From Gemmatimonadales bacterium (GTDB lineage: Bacteria; Gemmatimonadota; Gemmatimonadetes; Gemmatimonadales; GWC2-71-9): a stretch of DNA of 64,000 nucleotides. The stretch's first letter is position 1. Every line of letters begins with the position of its first letter. The stretch lies in NCBI GenBank assembly GCA_035943095.1, contig DASZCN010000011.1, forward strand, positions 1,775 through 65,774, written 5' to 3'. The notes beneath the pieces were generated by a model. It made no database searches. It saw nothing but the letters and a program-made list of their open reading frames with translations, and had not been told where the DNA came from. A program made the position numbers and the translations under genes. Positions 1,609-11,274 of this stretch are shown here, piece by piece.

Positions 1609-2679
1609 ATGGAGCGAATCTGGAAGTCGCCGTTCGTGCGGCTCGTGGCGTATTACGTGCTCCTCAGCCTGGTGACGCTGCTGCTCGTCACGCTGTTCCC
1701 GCAGATACGCGACCTGTTCGAAAAATTTCAAGCGCTCTCGCCCGTCCATGTCGCCGGCGGAAAGAGCAAGGCGATCGAGGAGGCCGCGAGCGCCCCGGGC
1801 CCCGGGAGCTTGGGCGCCACCGCGCTCGCCGTCATCACCCTGTTCTCGATGGTCGGGGCGCTGGCGCTGATGCTGCCAACCGCGTGGGTGTACATGACCA
1901 CTAAGCAGCAGCGCGGCTACGATCAGTCCGTCGTTCAGACGGTGATCGTCTTGCCGATGACCGTGTCGGGCACGCTCATCCTCGTCCAAAACAGCCTCGC
2001 GCTCGCCTTCGCCCTGGGCGGGATCGTGGCCGCGATCCGGTTCCGCAACACGCTGAAAGACACGAAGGACGTGGTATACATCTACCTCGCCCTCGGCGTA
2101 GGCCTCGCGGCCGGCGTCTACGTTCCCGTGGTCGCCGCCGTGATGTCGCTGGTCTTCAACCTGACCGTGCTGGCGCTTTGGAAGCTCAATGTCGGCAACA
2201 TTTACGCCGATCAGGGTGTGCTGCTGCCGGCGCTGCCACCGGCCGAGGGGTTGCTGGGCCCGCGTCGACGCCCGTCCGCACAACTGGCCGTCGGTGACCC
2301 GCAGCTGCTCGCCGCTCTGGCGCCCAACGAGCTCGAAGAAGTGGCGGACCGCGCGGCTCGGCTGCAGGCGTACATCATGGCGCGTGCGGACGATAAGAAG
2401 GGCGAGCGCTTCAACGGCATGCTGCTCGTACACACGACTGAACCGGAGACGGCCCAGCGCGCGGTCGAACAGCTCCTCGAGACCGAGACCGTCCGCTGGC
2501 GCCTCGCCGAGATACTCCCGGCCGGGAGCGGGCGCTCGACGCTCGAATACCTGCTGCGCCTCAAGGAAGGGATCCTCGCGGCGTCCGTGCTCCATGCGTT
2601 GAAAAGCAGGGGCTCGCCACCGATCGATGCCGCTGAGTACCGCTCCCTACGGGGGTTAAAGAGGAGTAAAGGCGAATGA
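1609..2679 (+). CDS. DUF4956-like multi-pass membrane protein with a ~150-aa soluble C-terminal domain
   Basis: Several hydrophobic helices. The core LALAFALGGIVAAIRFRNTLKDTKDVVYIYLALGVGLAAGV resembles the DUF4956 signature (..IRYRT..YLF..G..G) as I remember it. The stop overlaps the next start (ATGA at 2676..2679). Confidence 0.55.
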   Translation: MERIWKSPFVRLVAYYVLLSLVTLLLVTLFPQIRDLFEKFQALSPVHVAGGKSKAIEEAASAPGPGSLGATALAVITLFSMVGALALMLPTAWVYMTTKQQRGYDQSVVQTVIVLPMTVSGTLILVQNSLALAFALGGIVAAIRFRNTLKDTKDVVYIYLALGVGLAAGVYVPVVAAVMSLVFNLTVLALWKLNVGNIYADQGVLLPALPPAEGLLGPRRRPSAQLAVGDPQLLAALAPNELEEVADRAARLQAYIMARADDKKGERFNGMLLVHTTEPETAQRAVEQLLETETVRWRLAEILPAGSGRSTLEYLLRLKEGILAASVLHALKSRGSPPIDAAEYRSLRGLKRSKGE

Positions 2680-5261
2680 GATCGAACGCGCAGCGGCTGG
2701 TCGCGGCCCTGACGCTGTTGATCGGCGTCGAAGAGCCACGCGCTCTCAGCGCACAGACGACCCCCGCACAACCAGTCCGGGACACGGCCGCCCGCAGCGT
2801 GGAAATTGTGGCGGGGCAGCACTACGCGGCCGGGTGGTTTCACCGTTTAATGCTGGGCGCTCACTATCGCGACCTCTGGACCACGCCGTTCCGAGTCGAC
2901 GCGCTCGACCTCGCGACATACGCGGGCGGGCTCACGCCCAGCCAATGCGGCGGCCGCCGCGAGACCAAGTCGCTCCGGCTGGTCGGGCCGAACGGGCGCG
3001 CATACGTGTTCCGCTCGGTCGACAAAGACCCCACTCTGGCTCTGCCCCCGAACCTGCGCGCGACCTTCGTGCGCGACCTCATCCAGGACCAGATCAGCTC
3101 GGCTCACCCGGGCGCTCCCTTAGTGGTGGCGCCGCTGCTCGACGCGGCTCGCATCATGAATGCGGAGCCGCACGTCTACGTGTTGGCCGACGACCGCCGC
3201 CTCGCGGGGTTCGCCTGTGCCAAGCCTGGTACCCTCGGCATGATCGAAGAGCGTCCCACCGTGGGACCGGACAACGAAATGGCGTGGGCAGGTGCGGCGG
3301 ACTTGGCGACCACGAAGAAGTTGTTCGAGCACCTCGAGCACGATCCCAAGAATCGCGTCGATTCTCGGGCATACCTCGCGGCCCGCCTGATGGACGTCTT
3401 TATCGGCGACTGGGACCGCCATCAGGACCAGTGGCGCTGGGCGCGGTTCGACTCCGCGGGGCTTCGCTGGTGGCGCCCGATCCCGCGCGACCGCGACCAG
3501 GCGTTCGCGCGTCTCGACGGCGTGCTCGTGTGGCTCACGGGCTTTTATTTTCCGCAGCTCGTCGGCTTCGACGACGACTATCCGAGCATCTGGCGTCTCA
3601 CGTTCGCGGGAGAAGTGCCGGACCGGAGACTGCTCGAGGATCTCGAGAAGCCCGTGTGGGACTCGGTGGCGCGGACCCTTCAGGGCCGAGTGACGGACTC
3701 GGTGATCGATGCGGCGGTCCGCCGCCTTCCACCGGAGTACTACCGGAAAAACGGCGTCACCCTCACTCGCGCGTTACGGCGCCGACGGGACCACCTGCCG
3801 CAAATCAGCGATCGCTATTACGCGCTGCTCGCCCAGGTGGTGGAAGTCCACGGCACCGACCAGTCAGACCTGGCCGAGATCGAACGCCTCCCCGGCGGGC
3901 GCGTGGCCGTCCGCTTGTCCCCACGCGCCGGAGGAGCACCGTTCTACCAGCGGACATTCAACAGACATGAGACGGACGAGATTCGCGTGTTCCTCCACGG
4001 CGGCGATGATCGAGCAGTCGTCCGCGGGTCCGACGGATCCGGGCCACTCGTCCTCGTGATCGGCGGCGACGGCGCCGACGAGCTCGTGGACTCCACGCGT
4101 GCGGGGCGCACGCGGTTTTACGACGACGGCCCGCAGGACCGATTCATCACGCCGCGCGGCACGCCGATAGACCGCTCGCACTACGTTGAACCTCCCGTGG
4201 ACACCTCTACACTGGGCGTCCCGCGAGACTGGGGCTCACGCTGGATGCCGCTAACCTGGGCTGGATACACGCCGGATCTCGGCCTCTTCGTCGGGGCGGG
4301 CGCCGACGGCACGGGCTACGACTTCCGCCGGCTGCCATATAACTCGCACGTACGAATCCGCGCCGGCTACGCGACTACCGCCCAAACGGGCCGGGCCGAG
4401 TTCAACGGCGAGTTTCGCGGCCTCGTGCCGCCGGTTACCGTGACACTGCGCGTTCGGGCGTCGGGAATCGATATCCTGCGGTTCTATGGCTTCGGCAATG
4501 AGACAGTGGATACCGGTTCCAGTGATTTCTATAAGGTGAAGCAACAGCAGTACCTGGTCGCGCCCGCGCTGCGATTCTCGCTTTCGCGGTCCGCTACGCT
4601 CTCCGTCGGTCCGTTATTCAAGTTCGCGCACACGAATCTCGAATCGGGCACGCTCATCAACACGCTTCGGCCCTACGGCGTGAGGGATCTGGCCCAGGTC
4701 GGTGGTGCCGCGTCATTTGAGGTGGACACGCGGGACCGGCCGACCGCCGCCACGCGCGGCATCTCGTTTGACCTCGGTGGAAGTTTCTATCCCCAGGCGC
4801 TGGGTCTGAACTCGTCGCTAGGCGAGGCGCACGGGGACGCGGCCACGTACCTGACGCTCCGCGCCCCGCTGAAACCGACACTCGCCGTGCGCGTCGCGGG
4901 GCGAAAAGTGTGGAGCTCGCTTCCGCTCCCATTCGAGGAAGCGGCGTACATCGGCGGCGCGACCACGGTGCGTGGGTTTGTGGACCACCGGTTCCTGGGC
5001 GACGCCGCCACCTACGGGAATGTCGAGCTGCGACTCTCGCTCGCCCGATTCTTCCTCCTCGTCCCTGGCGAGCTCGGGGTGTTCGGCCTCGGCGACGCGG
5101 GCCGGGTGTATTTCTCGGGCCAAACGTCGGACCGCTGGCACGCCGCTGCTGGCGGCGGGCTCTGGATGTCGTTTTTGAGTCGCGCCAATACCTTGTCCGT
5201 GGCCGCGGCGCACAGCATCGAGGGAACGCGGGTGTACGTCAAGACCGGGTTCGCCTTCTAG
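2676..5261 (+). CDS. Outer-membrane protein: signal peptide, uncharacterised N-terminal GDWDRH domain, C-terminal Omp85/bacterial surface antigen beta-barrel
   Basis: Signal peptide MRSNAQRLVAALTLLIGVEEPRALSAQ. Motif DVFIGDWDRHQDQWRW at 3405..3440. The C-terminus (..AYIGGATTVRGF..GNVELR..VFGLGDAGRVY....GGGLW...VYVKTGFAF) is typical of Omp85-type barrels ending in an aromatic residue. Confidence 0.65.
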   Translation: MRSNAQRLVAALTLLIGVEEPRALSAQTTPAQPVRDTAARSVEIVAGQHYAAGWFHRLMLGAHYRDLWTTPFRVDALDLATYAGGLTPSQCGGRRETKSLRLVGPNGRAYVFRSVDKDPTLALPPNLRATFVRDLIQDQISSAHPGAPLVVAPLLDAARIMNAEPHVYVLADDRRLAGFACAKPGTLGMIEERPTVGPDNEMAWAGAADLATTKKLFEHLEHDPKNRVDSRAYLAARLMDVFIGDWDRHQDQWRWARFDSAGLRWWRPIPRDRDQAFARLDGVLVWLTGFYFPQLVGFDDDYPSIWRLTFAGEVPDRRLLEDLEKPVWDSVARTLQGRVTDSVIDAAVRRLPPEYYRKNGVTLTRALRRRRDHLPQISDRYYALLAQVVEVHGTDQSDLAEIERLPGGRVAVRLSPRAGGAPFYQRTFNRHETDEIRVFLHGGDDRAVVRGSDGSGPLVLVIGGDGADELVDSTRAGRTRFYDDGPQDRFITPRGTPIDRSHYVEPPVDTSTLGVPRDWGSRWMPLTWAGYTPDLGLFVGAGADGTGYDFRRLPYNSHVRIRAGYATTAQTGRAEFNGEFRGLVPPVTVTLRVRASGIDILRFYGFGNETVDTGSSDFYKVKQQQYLVAPALRFSLSRSATLSVGPLFKFAHTNLESGTLINTLRPYGVRDLAQVGGAASFEVDTRDRPTAATRGISFDLGGSFYPQALGLNSSLGEAHGDAATYLTLRAPLKPTLAVRVAGRKVWSSLPLPFEEAAYIGGATTVRGFVDHRFLGDAATYGNVELRLSLARFFLLVPGELGVFGLGDAGRVYFSGQTSDRWHAAAGGGLWMSFLSRANTLSVAAAHSIEGTRVYVKTGFAF

Positions 5262-5263
5262 CG

Positions 5264-8200
5264 ATGCAGGCCGAGTGGAAGGCGGATGTTCCGACGCTGG
5301 ACCTGCTCAACCGGATGGTGTCGGATCCGCTCCCCCTCGACCTCCGCTCCGGCAGGGTGGAACCGTTTTTCCAGCGCGACATCTACTTCGACTCGGCCGA
5401 CTGGACGTTGCGCCGGCGGGGCGTCAGCTGCCGGTTTCGCATCGGCGTAGACGATCGGCGCATCCTCACGCTGCGCACGGGTGATCGGTGGGAGGATGGC
5501 GCTCTGTTCGCACCTCCGCAGCGGTTCGAGGCAGAGGTGCCCGAGCTCGAGGGTGAACAAGCCCTGGCGGGTACGTCCGACCCGGCGCGCCGCCTGCGAG
5601 CCCTGATCGAGCCCGGGCAACTGCTCCCCCGCATCCAGTTCGAGACGGAGCGCCGGGTCCGTCGATCGAAGCCGGCCTGGTTCTTCAGGGCGCGCCACGA
5701 GATCCTCTACGACGTCGTGACGGTGCGGAGTCACCATCTCGCGCAAAAGTTTCAGGAGCTCAAACTCCGCCAAGTCGTTAACGGGCGGCCCGCATTAGAC
5801 CGGCTCGCTCAAGCGTTTCAGCAACGATACGGTTTGCGCACGCTGCTCGTGGGGAAGCAGGAGCGTGCGGAGAAGCTGCTGCGTGAGCTCGAAGCGGACG
5901 GCTTGGCGGACGTCACGCGGCGCGGTCGCGAGGTCGCCGTGATCGTGCTCCAGGCCGGCGCCGTCGCGATGATCGTCGAGTCCGACTCGCTCACGCTGCC
6001 GATTCGCCGGGGATCCGGCGAAGAGGGTTGCCGAGACGTGTTGCGCGCATCGTTCGGCAGCGCGGACGGCCAGGTGCGCCTCCTGGGCACGGCCCCGGCA
6101 GGCCTGACGCGCCCCCTGCTCGAGGTCTGGGAGGTGCGCCGCGCGGCCGGAGCCCCGGATTCGACTGCGGCGGGACAACTCCAATGGTTACCTGTGGAGG
6201 AGGTCCTTGCTGCTGCCGGGTCCCCCGGGCTGCGCGACCCGCGGACCCTGGCCGCTTTGACGGTCGCCGCGCGATCGGAAGCGTTCACCGGCGCCGCCCC
6301 CGCCGTCCAGGCGCCGGCGCGAGCGACGGAACGTCGCATTCGACTGTCCGATGTCGCGCTCCGGCCGCCGGTCGCCGATCTCAACCGGCTCGGTCCGGAG
6401 CATTTCCTGAACAGCGACCTGAGCCTGCTCCACTTCAACGCGCGCGTCCTGGCGCTCGCGGAAGACGTGAGCGTACCGTTGCTCGCCCGGCTCCGCTTTT
6501 TGGCGATCGTCAGCGCCAATCTCGACGAGTTCTTCATGGTCCGGGTAACGACCTTGAAGCGGGCGGTGGCAGAGGGCGCGATCGGGCCCGGTGATGATGG
6601 CCTGGCCGCCGAGGAGGCCCTGCACGTCATCGGAATCCGGGTTCGGGCGCTGCTGGAGCGTCAGGCGCGTTGTTTCGCCGACGCATGCCGTCCAGCGCTC
6701 GCGGCACACGACGTCCGCATTTTTTCGTGGACAGAGCTGTCCCAGGCGCACCAGGAGCGCCTGGGGCGCTATTTCATGGAGGAGATCTTCCCGTTCATCT
6801 CCCCGCAAGCCATGACCCGCGCGCCGGGTCACCCGTTCCCCCTGATCCCCAACCTGCGCCTTTCCCTCGCGGTCCTGGTGCGCGATCTCGGAGGCGGACC
6901 GACGCACTTCGCCTATGTGAAAGTTCCGGACGATCGACCGCGGTTCGTTCCGCTCGAGGACGGCTCCGGTTTCGTCGCCCTCGAGGAGATCATCCGCGCA
7001 AACCTCCGACCGGTTTACTCGGGCCGGATCGTCGACGCGGCCTATGCGTTCCGTGTGACCCGGGGCGCGGATTTGGAGCTCGACGAGCAGCACGCCTCGA
7101 GCTTGATGCAGATCATCGAAGAGGAGACGAAGCGGCGACCGTATGGCGCCGCCGTGCGTGTCGAGGTGGAGCGCGACATGCCCCAGGCGGTCCGGGAGCT
7201 GCTCCTCCGGGAGCTGCAGTTCGAGGACACGGCTCCCGCCGGCTCCCTAGGCCCGAGCGACCTCTACGTCGCGCCAGGCCTCGTGGATTTCGCAGGTCTG
7301 CGTGACCTCGCCCGCCTGCCCCTTCCCGCGCTCGACTATCCACCGCATCGCGGCGCGTCGCCCATCGAGCCGGCACGCTCGATCTTCACGGTCCTCACCG
7401 AGCGTGACGTCCTCGTCCACCACCCGTACGACGATTTCGAGGCGACCGTTCAGCGATTCGTGCTCGAGGCGGCGGACGACCCGGACGTCGTCGCCATCAA
7501 GCAGACGCTGTATCGCGCCGGAGGGCGCTCGGAGATCGTCGATGCCCTCGTCCGCGCGGCGGGGCGCGGGAAAGAGGTGTTCGTGTTCGTGGAGCTGAAA
7601 GCGCGCTTTGACGAGGAACGCAACATCGAGTGGGCCCGGAAGCTCGAGCAGGCCGGTATCCGGGTCGTGTACGGGCTGGTCGAGCTCAAGACCCACGCCA
7701 AGACGGCCCTCGTCGTACGGCGCGAGGCTGGCGGGATTCGGCGCTACGTCCACGTCGGGACGGGCAATTACAACGCCGCGACCGCGGCGACCTACACGGA
7801 CCTGGGGCTACTGACGGCGGACCCCGACCTCGGTGCCGACCTGAACGACTTGTTCAACGAGCTTTCCGGGTCATCTCGGCCGCCCCAGACCGCGTTCCGA
7901 CGGATTCTCGTATCGCCCACGTTCCTCACCAAGCGTCTCCTCGAGCTCATCGCGCGTGAAGCGGACCACGCGCGGGCGGGCCGCGATGCCCGCATTCGCG
8001 CGAAGATCAACGGGCTCGCCGACTCCGAGATCATCGAGGCGTTGTACCGGGCGTCGCAGGCGGGGGTCGATATCGCGCTCGTGGTCCGGGGCGTCTGCAC
8101 GCTCCGCCCCGGCGTCGTGGGGCTGTCGGAGCGGATCCGCGTCACGAGCGTCATGGGACGCTTCCTCGAGCATGGCCGCATCTACCATTTCGCGAATGGC

Positions 8201-8455
8201 GGCGAGCCGGAGTACTACATCGGCTCCGCAGACTGGCGCCCGCGCAACCTCCGACAGCGCGTCGAGGTGGTGGCGCCGGTCCTAGACCCTGGAAGCCGCG
8301 CCAAGCTCGACGGCATCCTCGACTTGCAGCTCGCCGACCCGACAGCGTGGGACTTGGAGTCGGATGGAACCTATCGGCGCCGCGCGCCCGAGTCGGGGGC
8401 GGATCGGCGGACCTCACAAGAGCGGTTGCTCGCGCTGACCAGTGCGATCACTTGA
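5264..8455 (+). CDS. ppk: Polyphosphate kinase 1 with a ~378-aa N-terminal CYTH/TTM-like plus Nudix-like extension
   Basis: PPK1 homology runs from about 6398 (EHFLNSDLSLLHFNARVLALAED..LRFLAIVSANLDEFFMVRV) through KTHAKTALVVRRE to the C-terminal PLD-like domains. The N-terminus (QAEWK..FFQRDIYFDSADWTLRRRGVSCRFRI..) looks CYTH-like. I chose ATG 5264, in frame with track ORF 4910, because 4910..5263 overlaps the previous gene. Confidence 0.85.
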   Translation: MQAEWKADVPTLDLLNRMVSDPLPLDLRSGRVEPFFQRDIYFDSADWTLRRRGVSCRFRIGVDDRRILTLRTGDRWEDGALFAPPQRFEAEVPELEGEQALAGTSDPARRLRALIEPGQLLPRIQFETERRVRRSKPAWFFRARHEILYDVVTVRSHHLAQKFQELKLRQVVNGRPALDRLAQAFQQRYGLRTLLVGKQERAEKLLRELEADGLADVTRRGREVAVIVLQAGAVAMIVESDSLTLPIRRGSGEEGCRDVLRASFGSADGQVRLLGTAPAGLTRPLLEVWEVRRAAGAPDSTAAGQLQWLPVEEVLAAAGSPGLRDPRTLAALTVAARSEAFTGAAPAVQAPARATERRIRLSDVALRPPVADLNRLGPEHFLNSDLSLLHFNARVLALAEDVSVPLLARLRFLAIVSANLDEFFMVRVTTLKRAVAEGAIGPGDDGLAAEEALHVIGIRVRALLERQARCFADACRPALAAHDVRIFSWTELSQAHQERLGRYFMEEIFPFISPQAMTRAPGHPFPLIPNLRLSLAVLVRDLGGGPTHFAYVKVPDDRPRFVPLEDGSGFVALEEIIRANLRPVYSGRIVDAAYAFRVTRGADLELDEQHASSLMQIIEEETKRRPYGAAVRVEVERDMPQAVRELLLRELQFEDTAPAGSLGPSDLYVAPGLVDFAGLRDLARLPLPALDYPPHRGASPIEPARSIFTVLTERDVLVHHPYDDFEATVQRFVLEAADDPDVVAIKQTLYRAGGRSEIVDALVRAAGRGKEVFVFVELKARFDEERNIEWARKLEQAGIRVVYGLVELKTHAKTALVVRREAGGIRRYVHVGTGNYNAATAATYTDLGLLTADPDLGADLNDLFNELSGSSRPPQTAFRRILVSPTFLTKRLLELIAREADHARAGRDARIRAKINGLADSEIIEALYRASQAGVDIALVVRGVCTLRPGVVGLSERIRVTSVMGRFLEHGRIYHFANGGEPEYYIGSADWRPRNLRQRVEVVAPVLDPGSRAKLDGILDLQLADPTAWDLESDGTYRRRAPESGADRRTSQERLLALTSAIT

Positions 8456-9062
8456 AATAGTCGTCGGAGGCGCGACGCTCGGCGTCATCGGGTTGCTCGC
8501 CGGCCCCTCCTTGAGCGCCCAGGCGTGTCGGGAGCCTCACTACCGCTGGACGGCGAAGGTCGACACTTCAGGGGTGGCCGTCCCTCCGCAGCCGACATCG
8601 GTGGCAGCCATGCTCGCGACGTGGGCACCTCCGTTGCTCGCGTCGCGCGATGATTGTGCGCCGCGCGCCGAGCGCGAGCTGCGGACGTACGCGCTCCTCG
8701 CCTGGGTGCGACGGGTCGACAAATACAAGGACGACGAAGATTGGCACGTCGAGCTGACTGATCGGGCCGACACTCCGCCCGACTCGTGTATCGTCGCCGA
8801 GATACCCCATCCGCGCTATAGCGGGCGCTACGCCCTCGCGCGATCAGCCCTCGACTCGTTGATCGCGGGCCGCCGGCTCGGGAAGGGTGGCATCCTCCGC
8901 CGGCCGGTCCAGGCGCGCGTCATGGGGCTGGCCTTTTTCGATGGCCAGCATCGCCGCGGTGGTCGGCGCAGCGAACGGATCGACGGAGGGCACGGCCGCT
9001 GCAACGCCTCCGTGCGGGCCCTGTGGGAGATTCACCCGGTGTACCGCATCGGCTCTCCCTGA
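8442..9062 (+). CDS. Hypothetical secreted protein
   Basis: GTG start. N-terminal hydrophobic stretch GATLGVIGLLAGPSLSAQA resembles a signal peptide. I recognise no family. Confidence 0.4.
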   Translation: MRSLEIVVGGATLGVIGLLAGPSLSAQACREPHYRWTAKVDTSGVAVPPQPTSVAAMLATWAPPLLASRDDCAPRAERELRTYALLAWVRRVDKYKDDEDWHVELTDRADTPPDSCIVAEIPHPRYSGRYALARSALDSLIAGRRLGKGGILRRPVQARVMGLAFFDGQHRRGGRRSERIDGGHGRCNASVRALWEIHPVYRIGSP

Positions 9063-10591
9063 GCCCGTGCCACTCGATTTCTCCCGCCCTGCTTCGCGCG
9101 GTAGAGTGCCGCGTCCGCGACGACCCGCAGGTTCTCCACGGTGCTGACGGTGTCGGGGTAGCCCGCCACTCCGCACGAGATCGTGAGCGGGTAGGCTGCG
9201 CCGTCCCAGCGCCAAGCGGTCGACTCGACGGTCGCGCGGATTCGCTCCGCGACCTCCAGTCCCGACTCGATCGGGGTGTGCGGCATCCAGATCGCGAACT
9301 CTTCACCGCCGATTCGCGCCACGAGATCCTTGTCCCGCACGGCTTCTTCGAGGATTCGGGCGACGTGCCGCAGGGCCCCGTCGCCGGCCGCATGCCCCAA
9401 CGTGTCGTTCAGCTTCTTGAAGTGGTCCAGGTCCGCGTAGATGAGCGTCGCGATCAGGGGTTGCTTGCTCTCGTGGAGACTGAGGACTCGCTCCAGCTCC
9501 CGCAGATTGCGCAACCCGGTGAGGGGATCCTTCACCGCCCGCTGCTCCGCTTCGTGGAGCGCACGCGCCGCGGCTAACCGCGACCCCAGCTCCGCAACCA
9601 GGCGCTGGAGCTGATCGGCCGAAGGCGTGCCGGCCGGGAAGGGCGGCCCCATGACTACGAGCGCCCCGATCGCGAAGTGTCCGTCGAGTAGGGGATACGC
9701 GGTGCCCGCGCGGTCGCGGCGTCGCCGGTCCGGCAGCGCGCCGCCGAACACATCCTCCGACCCCTGCGAGGCGACGGGCACGCGCGCGCCGATCGCGCGC
9801 AGCGCGGGAGCGTCGGGCGTGAGGGTCAGCCCTTCAAGCCTGCCGTCCACCCGCTTGGACACCGCCACGACGCGTGCCTCGGCGCTAGCGGGGCCGAAGC
9901 CCTGGAGGATGATCGCGGAGCCGCGCTCGGTCAGTTGCTGGGCTAACGCCACGCCCGCCCTGACAATTCCTTCGAGGCTTTGCGCTCCCCCGGTCATAGC
10001 GGCGAGCTGCTTCACCACAAACTGGGCTGGTTGATCGGTAGCCTGCTGTTGCCGCAGGAGCCGCATGCTCGCGACCAGGCGGCGCAGCTCCTCGGTCGCG
10101 CTCTCCGCGGCGCTCGCCGGCGGGTCCACCGCGGGTAGCAGCAACCCCGCGCCCCACGGGAAGTCCCCGACGGCCACGTAGGTGCCCGCCGGATCGCGCG
10201 CCACATGGACCCGCCCGTCTATCGAGGCGAGCTGCACGAGGGCGGCCCCTCGTTGCCGGGCCGCCTGATCTAACGCGTCTCCCCCCCGCCCCCCCCGCCC
10301 CACCGTTTCGAGGTCGCCCTCCTCGAGACCGACGATCCAGCCGGCGCGGGCCCCGTAGGACCGGCACAAGAGGTCAAGCACGTGCTCGAAGTCCGACGGG
10401 CGACTGAGCGGCGCGTCCGCGAGCCAGGCGCGAACGATGGGCGGCAGCGCGAGGCCGATGGCGACAAGAAAGCCGCCGAGCGCGGCGACCAGAGCCCACA
10501 CGTTGGCGGAGAGGACAGCGGGGACGACGGCGGCCAGGCCGAGCACCGCGAGAAGGCGCCCGACCCAAACCCCCGCGGGGGGGAGCTTCAT
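9032..10591 (-). CDS. Membrane-anchored sensor diguanylate cyclase (GGDEF)
   Basis: C-terminal GGDEF domain: DLDHFKKLNDTLGHAAGDGALRHV..ARIGGEEFAIWM..AALYRAKQGGRNRV. The N-terminus has two hydrophobic helices. Start set at ATG 10591 (MKLPPAGVWVGRLL), which overlaps the larB stop as ATGA. Confidence 0.85.
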   Translation of the reverse strand: MKLPPAGVWVGRLLAVLGLAAVVPAVLSANVWALVAALGGFLVAIGLALPPIVRAWLADAPLSRPSDFEHVLDLLCRSYGARAGWIVGLEEGDLETVGRGGRGGDALDQAARQRGAALVQLASIDGRVHVARDPAGTYVAVGDFPWGAGLLLPAVDPPASAAESATEELRRLVASMRLLRQQQATDQPAQFVVKQLAAMTGGAQSLEGIVRAGVALAQQLTERGSAIILQGFGPASAEARVVAVSKRVDGRLEGLTLTPDAPALRAIGARVPVASQGSEDVFGGALPDRRRRDRAGTAYPLLDGHFAIGALVVMGPPFPAGTPSADQLQRLVAELGSRLAAARALHEAEQRAVKDPLTGLRNLRELERVLSLHESKQPLIATLIYADLDHFKKLNDTLGHAAGDGALRHVARILEEAVRDKDLVARIGGEEFAIWMPHTPIESGLEVAERIRATVESTAWRWDGAAYPLTISCGVAGYPDTVSTVENLRVVADAALYRAKQGGRNRVARAQGEPMRYTG

Positions 10592-11274
10592 GAATGATTG
10601 ATGCGACTCGCGGCGGCGGCGGCGCCGAACCCGTTGTCGATGTTGACGACCGTGATACCCGCCACACACGAGTTGAGCATGGCAAGCAGGGCCGCGATGC
10701 CGCCGAACGACGCGCCGTACCCCACGCTGGTCGGGACCGCGATCACGGGTACGGCGACGAGGCCGCCGACCACGCTCGGCAATGCGCCTTCCATCCCCGC
10801 AACGACGATAATGACGGCGGCACTGCGCAGCGCGTCGGTCTGGGTGAGGATGCGGTGGATCCCCGCGACCCCGACGTCGGTGAGCCGGGCGACCGCGTTC
10901 CCGAACGCGCGGGCTGTCAGGGCCGCCTCCTCGGCGACGGGGAGATCGCTCGTGCCAGCCGTGACGACGAGAATCGTCCCCCGCCCCGTCGGCGCGGGCT
11001 CGGGATCGGCCGGAAGGTAGACGACGCGACCAGGCTCATTCACCTCCGCGCGCGGGAACCGCGCCACCAGCGCCTGACGGTGGACCGGCTCCACCCGCGT
11101 CGCGAGAAAGCTTCCGCCTCGGGCCTCGAGCCGTTCGGCGATGCCCACCACCTGCTCGGGTGTCTTGCCCTGACAGAAAATCACCTCCTGGTGCCCCTGG
11201 GTGACGGGCCGGAGGTGATCGATAGACGCGAACGGGAGGCGCTCGACGAGCCGCCCCAGGTCCTCGAAATTCAC
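10588..11274 (-). CDS. larB: LarB-type nickel-pincer cofactor biosynthesis protein (AIR-carboxylase-like)
   Basis: ..ILVVTAGTSDLPVAEEA..IIVVAGMEGALPSVVGGLV..PVIAVPTSVGYGASFGGIAALLAMLNSC.. is typical of the LarB/PurE-like family. Confidence 0.75.
   Translation of the reverse strand: MNFEDLGRLVERLPFASIDHLRPVTQGHQEVIFCQGKTPEQVVGIAERLEARGGSFLATRVEPVHRQALVARFPRAEVNEPGRVVYLPADPEPAPTGRGTILVVTAGTSDLPVAEEAALTARAFGNAVARLTDVGVAGIHRILTQTDALRSAAVIIVVAGMEGALPSVVGGLVAVPVIAVPTSVGYGASFGGIAALLAMLNSCVAGITVVNIDNGFGAAAAASRINHS

Follow-up and report, generated by a model that had tools for sequence, protein, structure and literature searches.

The main polyphosphate (polyP) synthase of bacteria is PPK1, an enzyme whose regulation and localization are little known; the founding isolate of the Gemmatimonadota is itself a polyphosphate accumulator. 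A different fold, that of the triphosphate tunnel metalloenzyme (TTM) superfamily, is linked with both polyP synthesis and a membrane component in the eukaryotic vacuolar transporter chaperone (VTC) complex (Vtc4) and in the bacterial VTC proteins, as it also appears to be at the locus described here. We analyzed a 64,000-nucleotide (nt) stretch of DNA from a soil Gemmatimonadales bacterium (GenBank assembly GCA_035943095.1, contig DASZCN010000011.1, positions 1,775 to 65,774 of the forward strand; hereafter the window), in which a single gene encodes a PPK1 preceded by a predicted CYTH/TTM-like barrel and a predicted Nudix-like domain, and stands in an apparent operon with the gene of a DUF4956 inner-membrane protein.

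The CYTH-TTM inorganic triphosphatases (PF01928), such as YgiF of E. coli, carry the signatures ExExK and ExE, which build the metal sites, and xRxR and DxY, which bind the substrate (PMC4641920, PMC8233210). In the two-metal mechanism of YgiF (Martinez et al. 2015; PMC4641920), site 2 comprises E4, E6 and E162 and site 1 comprises E160, and mutation of the corresponding glutamates in YgiF and AtTTM3 abolishes activity. Reported fusion partners of CYTH domains are HD, exopolyphosphatase, nucleotidyl kinase and CHAD domains (PMC8233210). YgiF itself, with its CYTH and polyP-binding CHAD domains, resembles the protein studied here in that a tunnel is joined to a polyP-related domain; PPK1, however, is not among the reported partners. 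A further parallel is offered by the plant proteins AtTTM1 and AtTTM2 (CYTH cluster 7), in which a CYTH domain without ExExK and ExE but with xRxR and DxY is fused to a kinase, and of which AtTTM2 nevertheless has pyrophosphatase activity (PMC8233210). This likeness is by description only: their kinase is P-loop uridine-kinase-like rather than a PPK1, they have no Nudix-like domain, and both the kingdom and the domain order differ. As for the bacterial VTC-domain proteins, these are encoded beside DUF4956 and CotH, and a cluster of cotH, polyP-polymerase and DUF4956 genes has been described in Streptococci, Clostridia and Bifidobacteria (bioRxiv 10.1101/768473); the DUF4956 protein has been described as an MgtC-like transmembrane domain combined with an ACT domain (PMC12345266). 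The DUF4956 neighbor is common to these clusters and to our locus where, unlike in the VTC systems, polymerization falls to PPK1 and the catalytic motifs are absent from the TTM domain.

Within open-access PubMed Central and bioRxiv, no paper that we found describes a fusion of PPK1 to a CYTH or a Nudix domain or assigns a function to DUF4956, and nothing relevant turned up on Gemmatimonadetes ppk1 or on CYTH combined with Nudix. The components of the protein are known folds and the enzyme is PPK1; what is unexpected is the architecture and the link to DUF4956, which together point to an undescribed way of controlling or localizing polyP synthesis. As to the role of the N-terminal module, we lean modestly toward one in which it would bind a phosphate chain or a nucleotide without hydrolyzing it, and would thereby regulate PPK1 and/or dock it on DUF4956.

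A conserved N-terminal extension of PPK1

The fusion gene (5264..8455; coordinates are those of the window, and features lie on the + strand unless stated otherwise) was delineated from its open reading frame (ORF), its Pfam and NCBIfam domains and the orthologous fusion ORFs. It encodes 1063 amino acids (aa), with 378 aa ahead of the PPK1 part at aa 379-1063. That an extension of about this length precedes PPK1, and that PPK1 homology begins near 6398, had been proposed in the original prediction; both points hold, as Pfam detects PPK1 from aa 381 and NCBIfam from aa 378-381, which places the domain starts at nt ~6398-6404.

The PPK1 part (6398..8452) comprises the N, head, C1 and C2 domains, with PP_kinase_N (PF13089) at aa 381-486, the middle domain (PF02503) at 496-667, C1 (PF17941) at 706-872 and C2 (PF13090) at 882-1048, and it scores 733 bits against TIGR03705 (cut-off 465.85). 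It shares this four-domain organization, the autophosphorylated histidine and the ATP and polyP ligands with the canonical PPK1 of E. coli (Ppk), to which it is 36.5% identical. In the active-site alignment H811 and H830 correspond to E. coli H435 and H454, and the E. coli residues N45, R375, S380, R405, F488, P507, R564, H592 and R621 are conserved; the phosphohistidine is kept and, of the other active-site residues checked, so are all but one. With the roles of these residues, which we take from the E. coli PPK structure, the PPK1 part is predicted to be catalytically intact. It differs from the E. coli enzyme in bearing the TTM and Nudix-like extension and in belonging to an operon that holds genes for DUF4956, Omp85-like and secreted proteins instead of ppx.

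A scan of 185,579 species genomes yielded 94 relatives, of which 80 loci were kept, all of them in Gemmatimonadota/Gemmatimonadales genome assemblies (metagenome-assembled genomes, MAGs). At every one of these loci whose contig reaches the junction, the N-terminal module runs into PPK1 without a break and in the same frame, and orthologous fusion ORFs of 1030-1085 aa are present in more than 60 Gemmatimonadota genomes. A profile search of 1.84 billion cluster representatives recovered 482 relatives at E <= 1e-3, of which 144 reach E <= 1e-30; the full-length relatives among the 150 matches listed are all fusion-sized, at about 1030-1110 aa. The family consists of two paralogous clades, with module identities to the window protein of 55-87% in clade 1 and 30-47% in clade 2, and at least seven MAGs encode both (L006+L045, L012+L038, L016+L048, L026+L058, L013+L060, L034+L064 and L036+L080). 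A canonical PPK1 without the extension is found at one of the 80 loci (L011 12767-15169, - strand), where it shows 47% identity and is encoded on the strand opposite to the fusion, 1.7 kb downstream of it; within the window, we found no second copy of PPK1, the N-terminal module or DUF4956. Against six orthologues, the dN/dS ratio is 0.11-0.19 for the CYTH part, equal to that of PPK1 (0.10-0.17), as against 0.17-0.31 for the Nudix-like part and 0.18-0.68 for the linker. The module is translated, under strong purifying selection and specific to the Gemmatimonadota.

The ATG at 5264 sits 2 nt past the TAG stop (5259-5261) of the upstream gene, and close relatives share this start methionine (MxAEWK...). 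A mechanically called ORF (4910..8455) starts 118 codons further upstream than this ATG and, in another frame, shares sequence with the end of the Omp85-like gene; because the homologues begin at the methionine of 5264, the stretch 4910-5263 is not part of the protein. The converse error, in which the real start would lie near nt 6398 and the frame upstream of it would be non-functional, being either an artefact of annotation or assembly or a relic in decay, might be suspected from the lack of an obvious Shine-Dalgarno sequence ahead of 5264 in the window and from the frequency of long spurious ORFs in GC-rich genomes. We give this next to no credence. The start methionine, the frame and the domain order are identical across dozens of independent assemblies, the dN/dS values over the CYTH and Nudix-like parts range from 0.11 to 0.31, invariant residues are scattered across both N-terminal domains, the AlphaFold2 model of the extension folds confidently, and hundreds of cluster representatives are related to it. 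Given the shared methionine, the in-frame fusion, the low dN/dS and the wide conservation, a mis-called start or relic is therefore excluded, and the artefact explanation can be regarded as effectively refuted.

The CYTH/TTM-like barrel

The first domain, for which residues 1 to ~210 had originally been read as CYTH-like, can be placed at aa 1-195 (5264..5848) by a Pfam CYTH match, the strands of the AlphaFold2 model and Foldseek. The Pfam match (PF01928) at aa 26-135 is marginal and spans only profile positions 24-123 of 179; its score is 23.7 bits for the complete protein and 25.8 bits for the N-terminal fragment, with a gathering cut-off of 23.2 and an E-value of 1e-5. The AlphaFold2 model of aa 1-378, built on 60 homologues (mean predicted local distance difference test score, pLDDT, 76), shows a barrel of eight main strands (4-9, 28-42, 54-60, 66-72, 86-91, 122-136, 144-156 and 159-172) with short helices. 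When this model was compared with the PDB using Foldseek, ranks 1-21 were all TTM/CYTH structures, namely YgiF (5a60, E 3e-9), SaTTM, AtTTM3 and thiamine triphosphatase. YgiF, recovered with a probability of 1.0 and a target-normalised TM-score of about 0.5, is the best structural match to the modeled barrel, for which the same eight-stranded tunnel topology is predicted. The barrel is followed by a connecting helix at aa 196-221 (5849..5926; helix 198-220 in the model) with an invariant R201-A202 in the family columns. A 10-residue insertion at aa 76-85 (nt 5489-5518), present in clade 1 and absent in clade 2, adds a small hairpin between strands 4 and 5.

To characterize the motifs, we used the alignment columns of 64 full-length fusion proteins. 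The substrate-binding signatures are kept: DxY as D39-I-Y41 (5378..5386; D39 100%, Y41 95%) and xRxR as C56-R57-F58-R59 (5429..5440; R57 92%, R59 98%), with R57 aligning in hhalign with the catalytic, substrate-binding R56 of YgiF. The metal-binding signatures are not. At the ExExK position the window protein reads Q2-A-E4-W-K6 (5267..5281), its first glutamate replaced by glutamine, as had been noticed from the start in the string MQAEWK; in the family, position 2 is variable or absent, E4 is conserved at 67%, and position 6 is K/R in about 94%. At the ExE position, located by hhalign against YgiF and by the family columns, it reads E165-L-K167 (5756..5764). Here E165 is conserved at 97%, whereas the next inward-facing position, 167, carries K/T in clade 1 but V/A/S in clade 2; R, W or S occupies position 169, and clade 1 has K167/R169. 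By these motifs, and by a sequence similarity that is only marginal, the barrel departs from YgiF. The CYTH part has an isoelectric point of 10.3 and 30 arginines in 195 aa.

On these alignments, a site-2 glutamate is missing in either of the two possible registers of E165 (see below), and no more than one of the three site-2 ligands is left. With ExE read as ExK/T/V/A/S and ExExK as QxExK (family consensus xxEx[KR]), metal site 2 is thus predicted to be unable to form; E165 may serve as the site-1 glutamate. Judging from the family columns, this catalytic-motif degeneracy is a trait of the whole family and not of the window sequence alone.

The Nudix-like domain and the linker

A Nudix fold with a degenerate Nudix box had likewise been suspected at residues ~215 to 340, and the model, Foldseek and the family columns now support a catalytically degenerate Nudix-fold domain at aa 222-342 (5927..6289). 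It is modeled with block pLDDT values mostly of 82-90, except for a loop near aa 296-305 at 65-70, in which residues 300-303 fall below 50, and it ends in a highly conserved C-terminal helix at aa 319-338. From rank 22 onward, the Foldseek matches are Nudix hydrolases (YmfB 3dku, M. smegmatis MutT1 and ADP-ribose pyrophosphatase) with E-values of 2e-5 to 2e-4, target-normalised TM-scores of 0.52-0.58 and root-mean-square deviations (rmsd) of 3.6-4.6 A over about 128 columns; YmfB 3dku was matched with an E-value of 2e-5, a TM-score of 0.55 and an rmsd of 4.2 A over 128 columns. The fold matches therefore support both the CYTH/TTM and the Nudix assignments.

Like the Nudix hydrolases (YmfB/NudJ, MutT1, ADP-ribose pyrophosphatase), the domain has an alpha/beta/alpha fold in the model, together with a recognizable E-x7-R spacing and a later W-containing strand. 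Unlike them, the fusion protein has no match to Pfam NUDIX (PF00293), and the box has lost its catalytic part. The remnant of the box, G250..G265 (6011..6058), which we aligned manually to E. coli MutT and compared with the family columns, reads G250-S-G-E-E-G-C-R-D-V-L-R-A-S-F-G265 in place of GX5EX7REUXEEXGU. In it G250, G252, E253 (88%), R257 and R261 are conserved and the E253-x7-R261 spacing is kept, but R261 is followed by A-S-F-G and the REUxEE glutamates are deleted. The Nudix helix is shorter by 3 residues, a deletion that takes out the equivalents of MutT E53, E56 and E57, none of which is present in any clade. Non-catalytic sensors with a Nudix fold are known in NrtR and in the NUDT9-H domain of TRPM2; the likeness of our domain to these is in concept only, in that binding rather than hydrolysis would be expected of it. 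The module is followed by a disordered, poorly conserved linker at aa 343-378 (6290..6397; pLDDT 31-37, identity to orthologues 6-58%), where dN/dS is also the highest of the protein.

Binding versus hydrolysis

In these features, an intact PPK1 carries the two-domain module on a flexible linker. The CYTH/TTM barrel retains its phosphate-binding framework, namely DxY, RxR, many tunnel arginines and one invariant glutamate, and is without the water-activating site-2 glutamates. In the model that we build on them, the module would hydrolyze nothing; its tunnel would hold a phosphate chain, either tripolyphosphate or a polyP end, while the Nudix-like pocket would perhaps accommodate a ligand of the nucleoside-diphosphate type. 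In this capacity it could regulate PPK1 and/or dock it on DUF4956 at the inner membrane, with DUF4956 recognizing the TTM fold as it may also do with the VTC-type TTM proteins of other phyla. PPK1 would then have, in the tandem of a TTM tunnel and a Nudix fold that are both degenerate, a built-in ligand sensor or adaptor.

An alternative is that the CYTH-like domain, either by itself or together with the Nudix-like domain, does work as a phosphohydrolase (a tripolyphosphatase, pyrophosphatase or exopolyphosphatase) that trims, primes or proof-reads the polymer or clears inhibitory pyrophosphate or tripolyphosphate. The retention of the TTM fold, of DxY and RxR and of the invariant glutamate would suit such an enzyme, as would the purifying selection, which is as strong as on PPK1, and the precedents of CYTH fusions to exopolyphosphatase and CHAD and of AtTTM2, active without ExExK and ExE (PMC8233210). 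Yet two of the three site-2 glutamates are absent in 64 of the 64 family members, and in clade 1 are partly replaced by Lys/Arg; loss of the corresponding residues kills the activity of YgiF and AtTTM3 (PMC4641920), and the catalytic glutamates of the Nudix-like domain are deleted. We consider this alternative unlikely, though it has more in its favor than the other rivals of the binding model.

Several points nevertheless weigh against the non-hydrolytic binding model and the assignments on which it builds. Both fold calls depend on one AlphaFold2 model of moderate confidence. The hhalign comparison of the CYTH part with YgiF is colinear and weak (probability 8%), and that of the Nudix-like family with E. 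coli MutT and NudJ reaches an E-value of 0.19 and aligns the W-strand alone, as the topology predicts. Sequence-profile searches of the PDB with the N-terminal module returned PPK1 alone (A2) or nothing meaningful (A3); homology is therefore visible at the fold level only. The register of E165 is ambiguous, since the ungapped hhalign alignment equates it with E158 of YgiF and motif logic with E160, and E4 (67%), E89 (67%) and E165, which is nearly invariant, might still coordinate a single metal. Finally, as AtTTM2 is active without ExExK and ExE, the loss of these motifs is no proof of inactivity. The earlier suggestion of a regulatory or binding module rather than an active triphosphatase has thus been strengthened by the family-wide loss of the motifs, but the AtTTM2 precedent keeps it short of proof.

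Genetic coupling with DUF4956

The fusion gene is the third of an apparent four-gene operon (1609-9062). The operon begins with the gene of the DUF4956 inner-membrane protein (1609..2679; Pfam PF16316, transmembrane prediction, AlphaFold2 and Foldseek), continues with that of an 861-aa outer-membrane protein of the Omp85 superfamily (2676..5261; Pfam/NCBIfam) and ends, after the fusion, with that of a 206-aa protein with an N-terminal signal or transmembrane segment (8442..9062; ORF and transmembrane prediction). The first two genes overlap by 4 nt, the second ends 2 nt before the fusion, and the fusion overlaps the last gene by 14 nt. This four-gene order is kept in nearly all clade-1 loci, with the Omp85-like gene staying between DUF4956 and the fusion, and a DUF4956 gene precedes the fusion on the same strand in 26 of the 27 clade-1 loci with enough flank. 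In clade 2, it is found within 1 kb in 14 of 37 loci, which are spread over most of the clade-2 subgroups.

The coupling is also seen in a natural triple fusion (L039 2321-6403, i.e., the 1317-aa protein P0069), in which DUF4956 (80-183) precedes CYTH (273-380), the Nudix-like domain and PPK1 (638-1300) in one polypeptide; its 90% cluster has four members, drawn from two contigs of 29,269 and 10,008 nt. P0069 seems to lack the ACT-like tail of DUF4956. DUF4956 is genetically coupled to the fusion and is its likely partner. Two considerations count against the docking part of the binding model: about 60% of the clade-2 loci are without a nearby DUF4956 gene, and to name any one domain as the contact of DUF4956, if there is such a contact, is purely inferential.

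Beyond the Gemmatimonadota, DUF4956 was matched only twice in the plasmid collection, each time directly beside a gene with a VTC domain (PF09359, a TTM-type 'polyphosphate polymerase'). In Nonomuraea gerenzanensis (L085 3802-7167) the VTC gene abuts or overlaps the DUF4956 gene and a CotH kinase gene comes next, and in Paenibacillus cellulosilyticus (L086 4162-5624) the same pair is followed by a gene for a Cthe_2159 carbohydrate-binding protein. Together with the coupling in the Gemmatimonadota, these VTC–DUF4956 pairs of Bacillota and Actinomycetota thus make a TTM-fold protein and DUF4956 a recurrent pair, seen in three phyla. The common neighbor connects the PPK1 system with the uncharacterized bacterial VTC–DUF4956–CotH clusters and provides a first functional lead for DUF4956, and the TTM–DUF4956 pairing is directly testable.

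We also considered whether the N-terminal module is itself a VTC-family domain and rejected this: the VTC profile PF09359 has no match in the fusion protein at E <= 1, and hhalign against the Paenibacillus and Nonomuraea VTC proteins gives E-values of 0.38 and 0.47. The original prediction had seen in the fusion a junction of two otherwise separate worlds of polyP polymerases, the VTC type and the PPK type. This is only partly borne out: the module does not belong to the VTC family, but it has the neighbor DUF4956 in common with bacterial VTC-domain genes, a link beyond the reach of the original prediction.

The envelope proteins of the operons raise a further possibility, namely that the fusion drives, from the cytoplasm, a polyP system that spans the envelope and works like the eukaryotic VTC complex. 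PPK1 would polymerize, the basic TTM tunnel would direct the chain toward DUF4956, polyP would be passed to the periplasm or the surface, and the Omp85-like barrel and the secreted proteins would act outside, with VTC, DUF4956 and a secreted CotH kinase as the equivalents in Bacillota and Actinomycetota. Consistent with it, the triad of a cytoplasmic TTM protein, DUF4956 and a secreted or outer-membrane protein recurs in three phyla, and in P0069 a transmembrane domain is directly fused to the module. Moreover, in Vtc4p basic residues at the acidic-patch positions lead the chain away (PMC4641920), and the K167/R169 of clade 1 are comparable replacements of acidic by basic residues; clade 2, however, has V/A/S and no basic residue at position 167, and many of its loci are without DUF4956.

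The modeled structure of DUF4956 speaks against a channel of this kind. The protein has 4-5 transmembrane helices and a soluble ACT-like C-terminal domain, and its AlphaFold2 model, in which the transmembrane part is poor (pLDDT about 50-70), matched in Foldseek only through the C-terminal ACT/ferredoxin-like domain, including the MgtC C-domain 2lqj. For the C-terminal domain, our model thus agrees with the MgtC-like description. In keeping with an MgtC-like protein (transmembrane plus ACT-like), it would fall with regulators, as the MgtC proteins are not known to be channels. It does not resemble the VTC transmembrane domain, there being no structural match and no Foldseek match at E <= 1e-3 with a transmembrane model of low confidence, and a VTC-like channel in DUF4956 is not supported. 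There is also no sign at these loci of extracellular or periplasmic polyP.

We regard the envelope-spanning system as improbable, distinctly more so than an active phosphohydrolase. The same low estimate applies to its broader form, in which DUF4956 and a TTM-fold protein would constitute an ancient cross-phylum module for membrane-coupled polyP synthesis and possibly export, the TTM domain of the Gemmatimonadota being a non-catalytic adaptor or chain guide that plugs in PPK1 alongside an outer-membrane barrel and secreted proteins. Were it true, bacteria would have a functional counterpart of the eukaryotic VTC complex, one by which polyP is delivered to the cell envelope. We continue to prefer the non-hydrolytic binding module, for which DUF4956 would be a docking partner.

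Additional genes of the fusion loci

In the Omp85-like protein only aa ~557-861 match Omp85/ShlB barrels, and no family was matched by the N-terminal ~550 aa (FIGDWDRHQDQWRW...RDRDQAF around aa 240-275). The 206-aa protein, which matches no Pfam or NCBIfam family, is conserved downstream of the clade-1 fusions at 48-84% identity. All clade-2 loci encode a conserved secreted protein of about 340-358 aa (alignment A5; e.g., L042 6904-7980 and L074 6964-7986), the gene of which lies directly upstream of the fusion or, where present, of DUF4956. It is characterized by the invariant motifs IGNxD[WF]x6HN and PYDFDxSG and by conserved cysteines. A relationship of this protein to the CotH-like kinases or to the N-terminal region of the Omp85-like protein was considered and dismissed, as searches with Pfam (E <= 10), PDB profiles and BLASTP and hhalign comparisons with CotH and the Omp85-like N-terminal region were all empty.

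A gene for a GGDEF diguanylate cyclase is found near the fusion in the window (9032-10669, - strand) and again, at about 1.8-5 kb upstream of it, in a single clade-2 subgroup (L056, L057, L059, L062, L066, L070, L073, L074, L076 and L077). The bifidobacterial cotH/polyP-polymerase/DUF4956 clusters are also reported to include a diguanylate cyclase/phosphodiesterase gene (10.1101/768473), and a connection of the fusion loci with cyclic di-GMP is possible.

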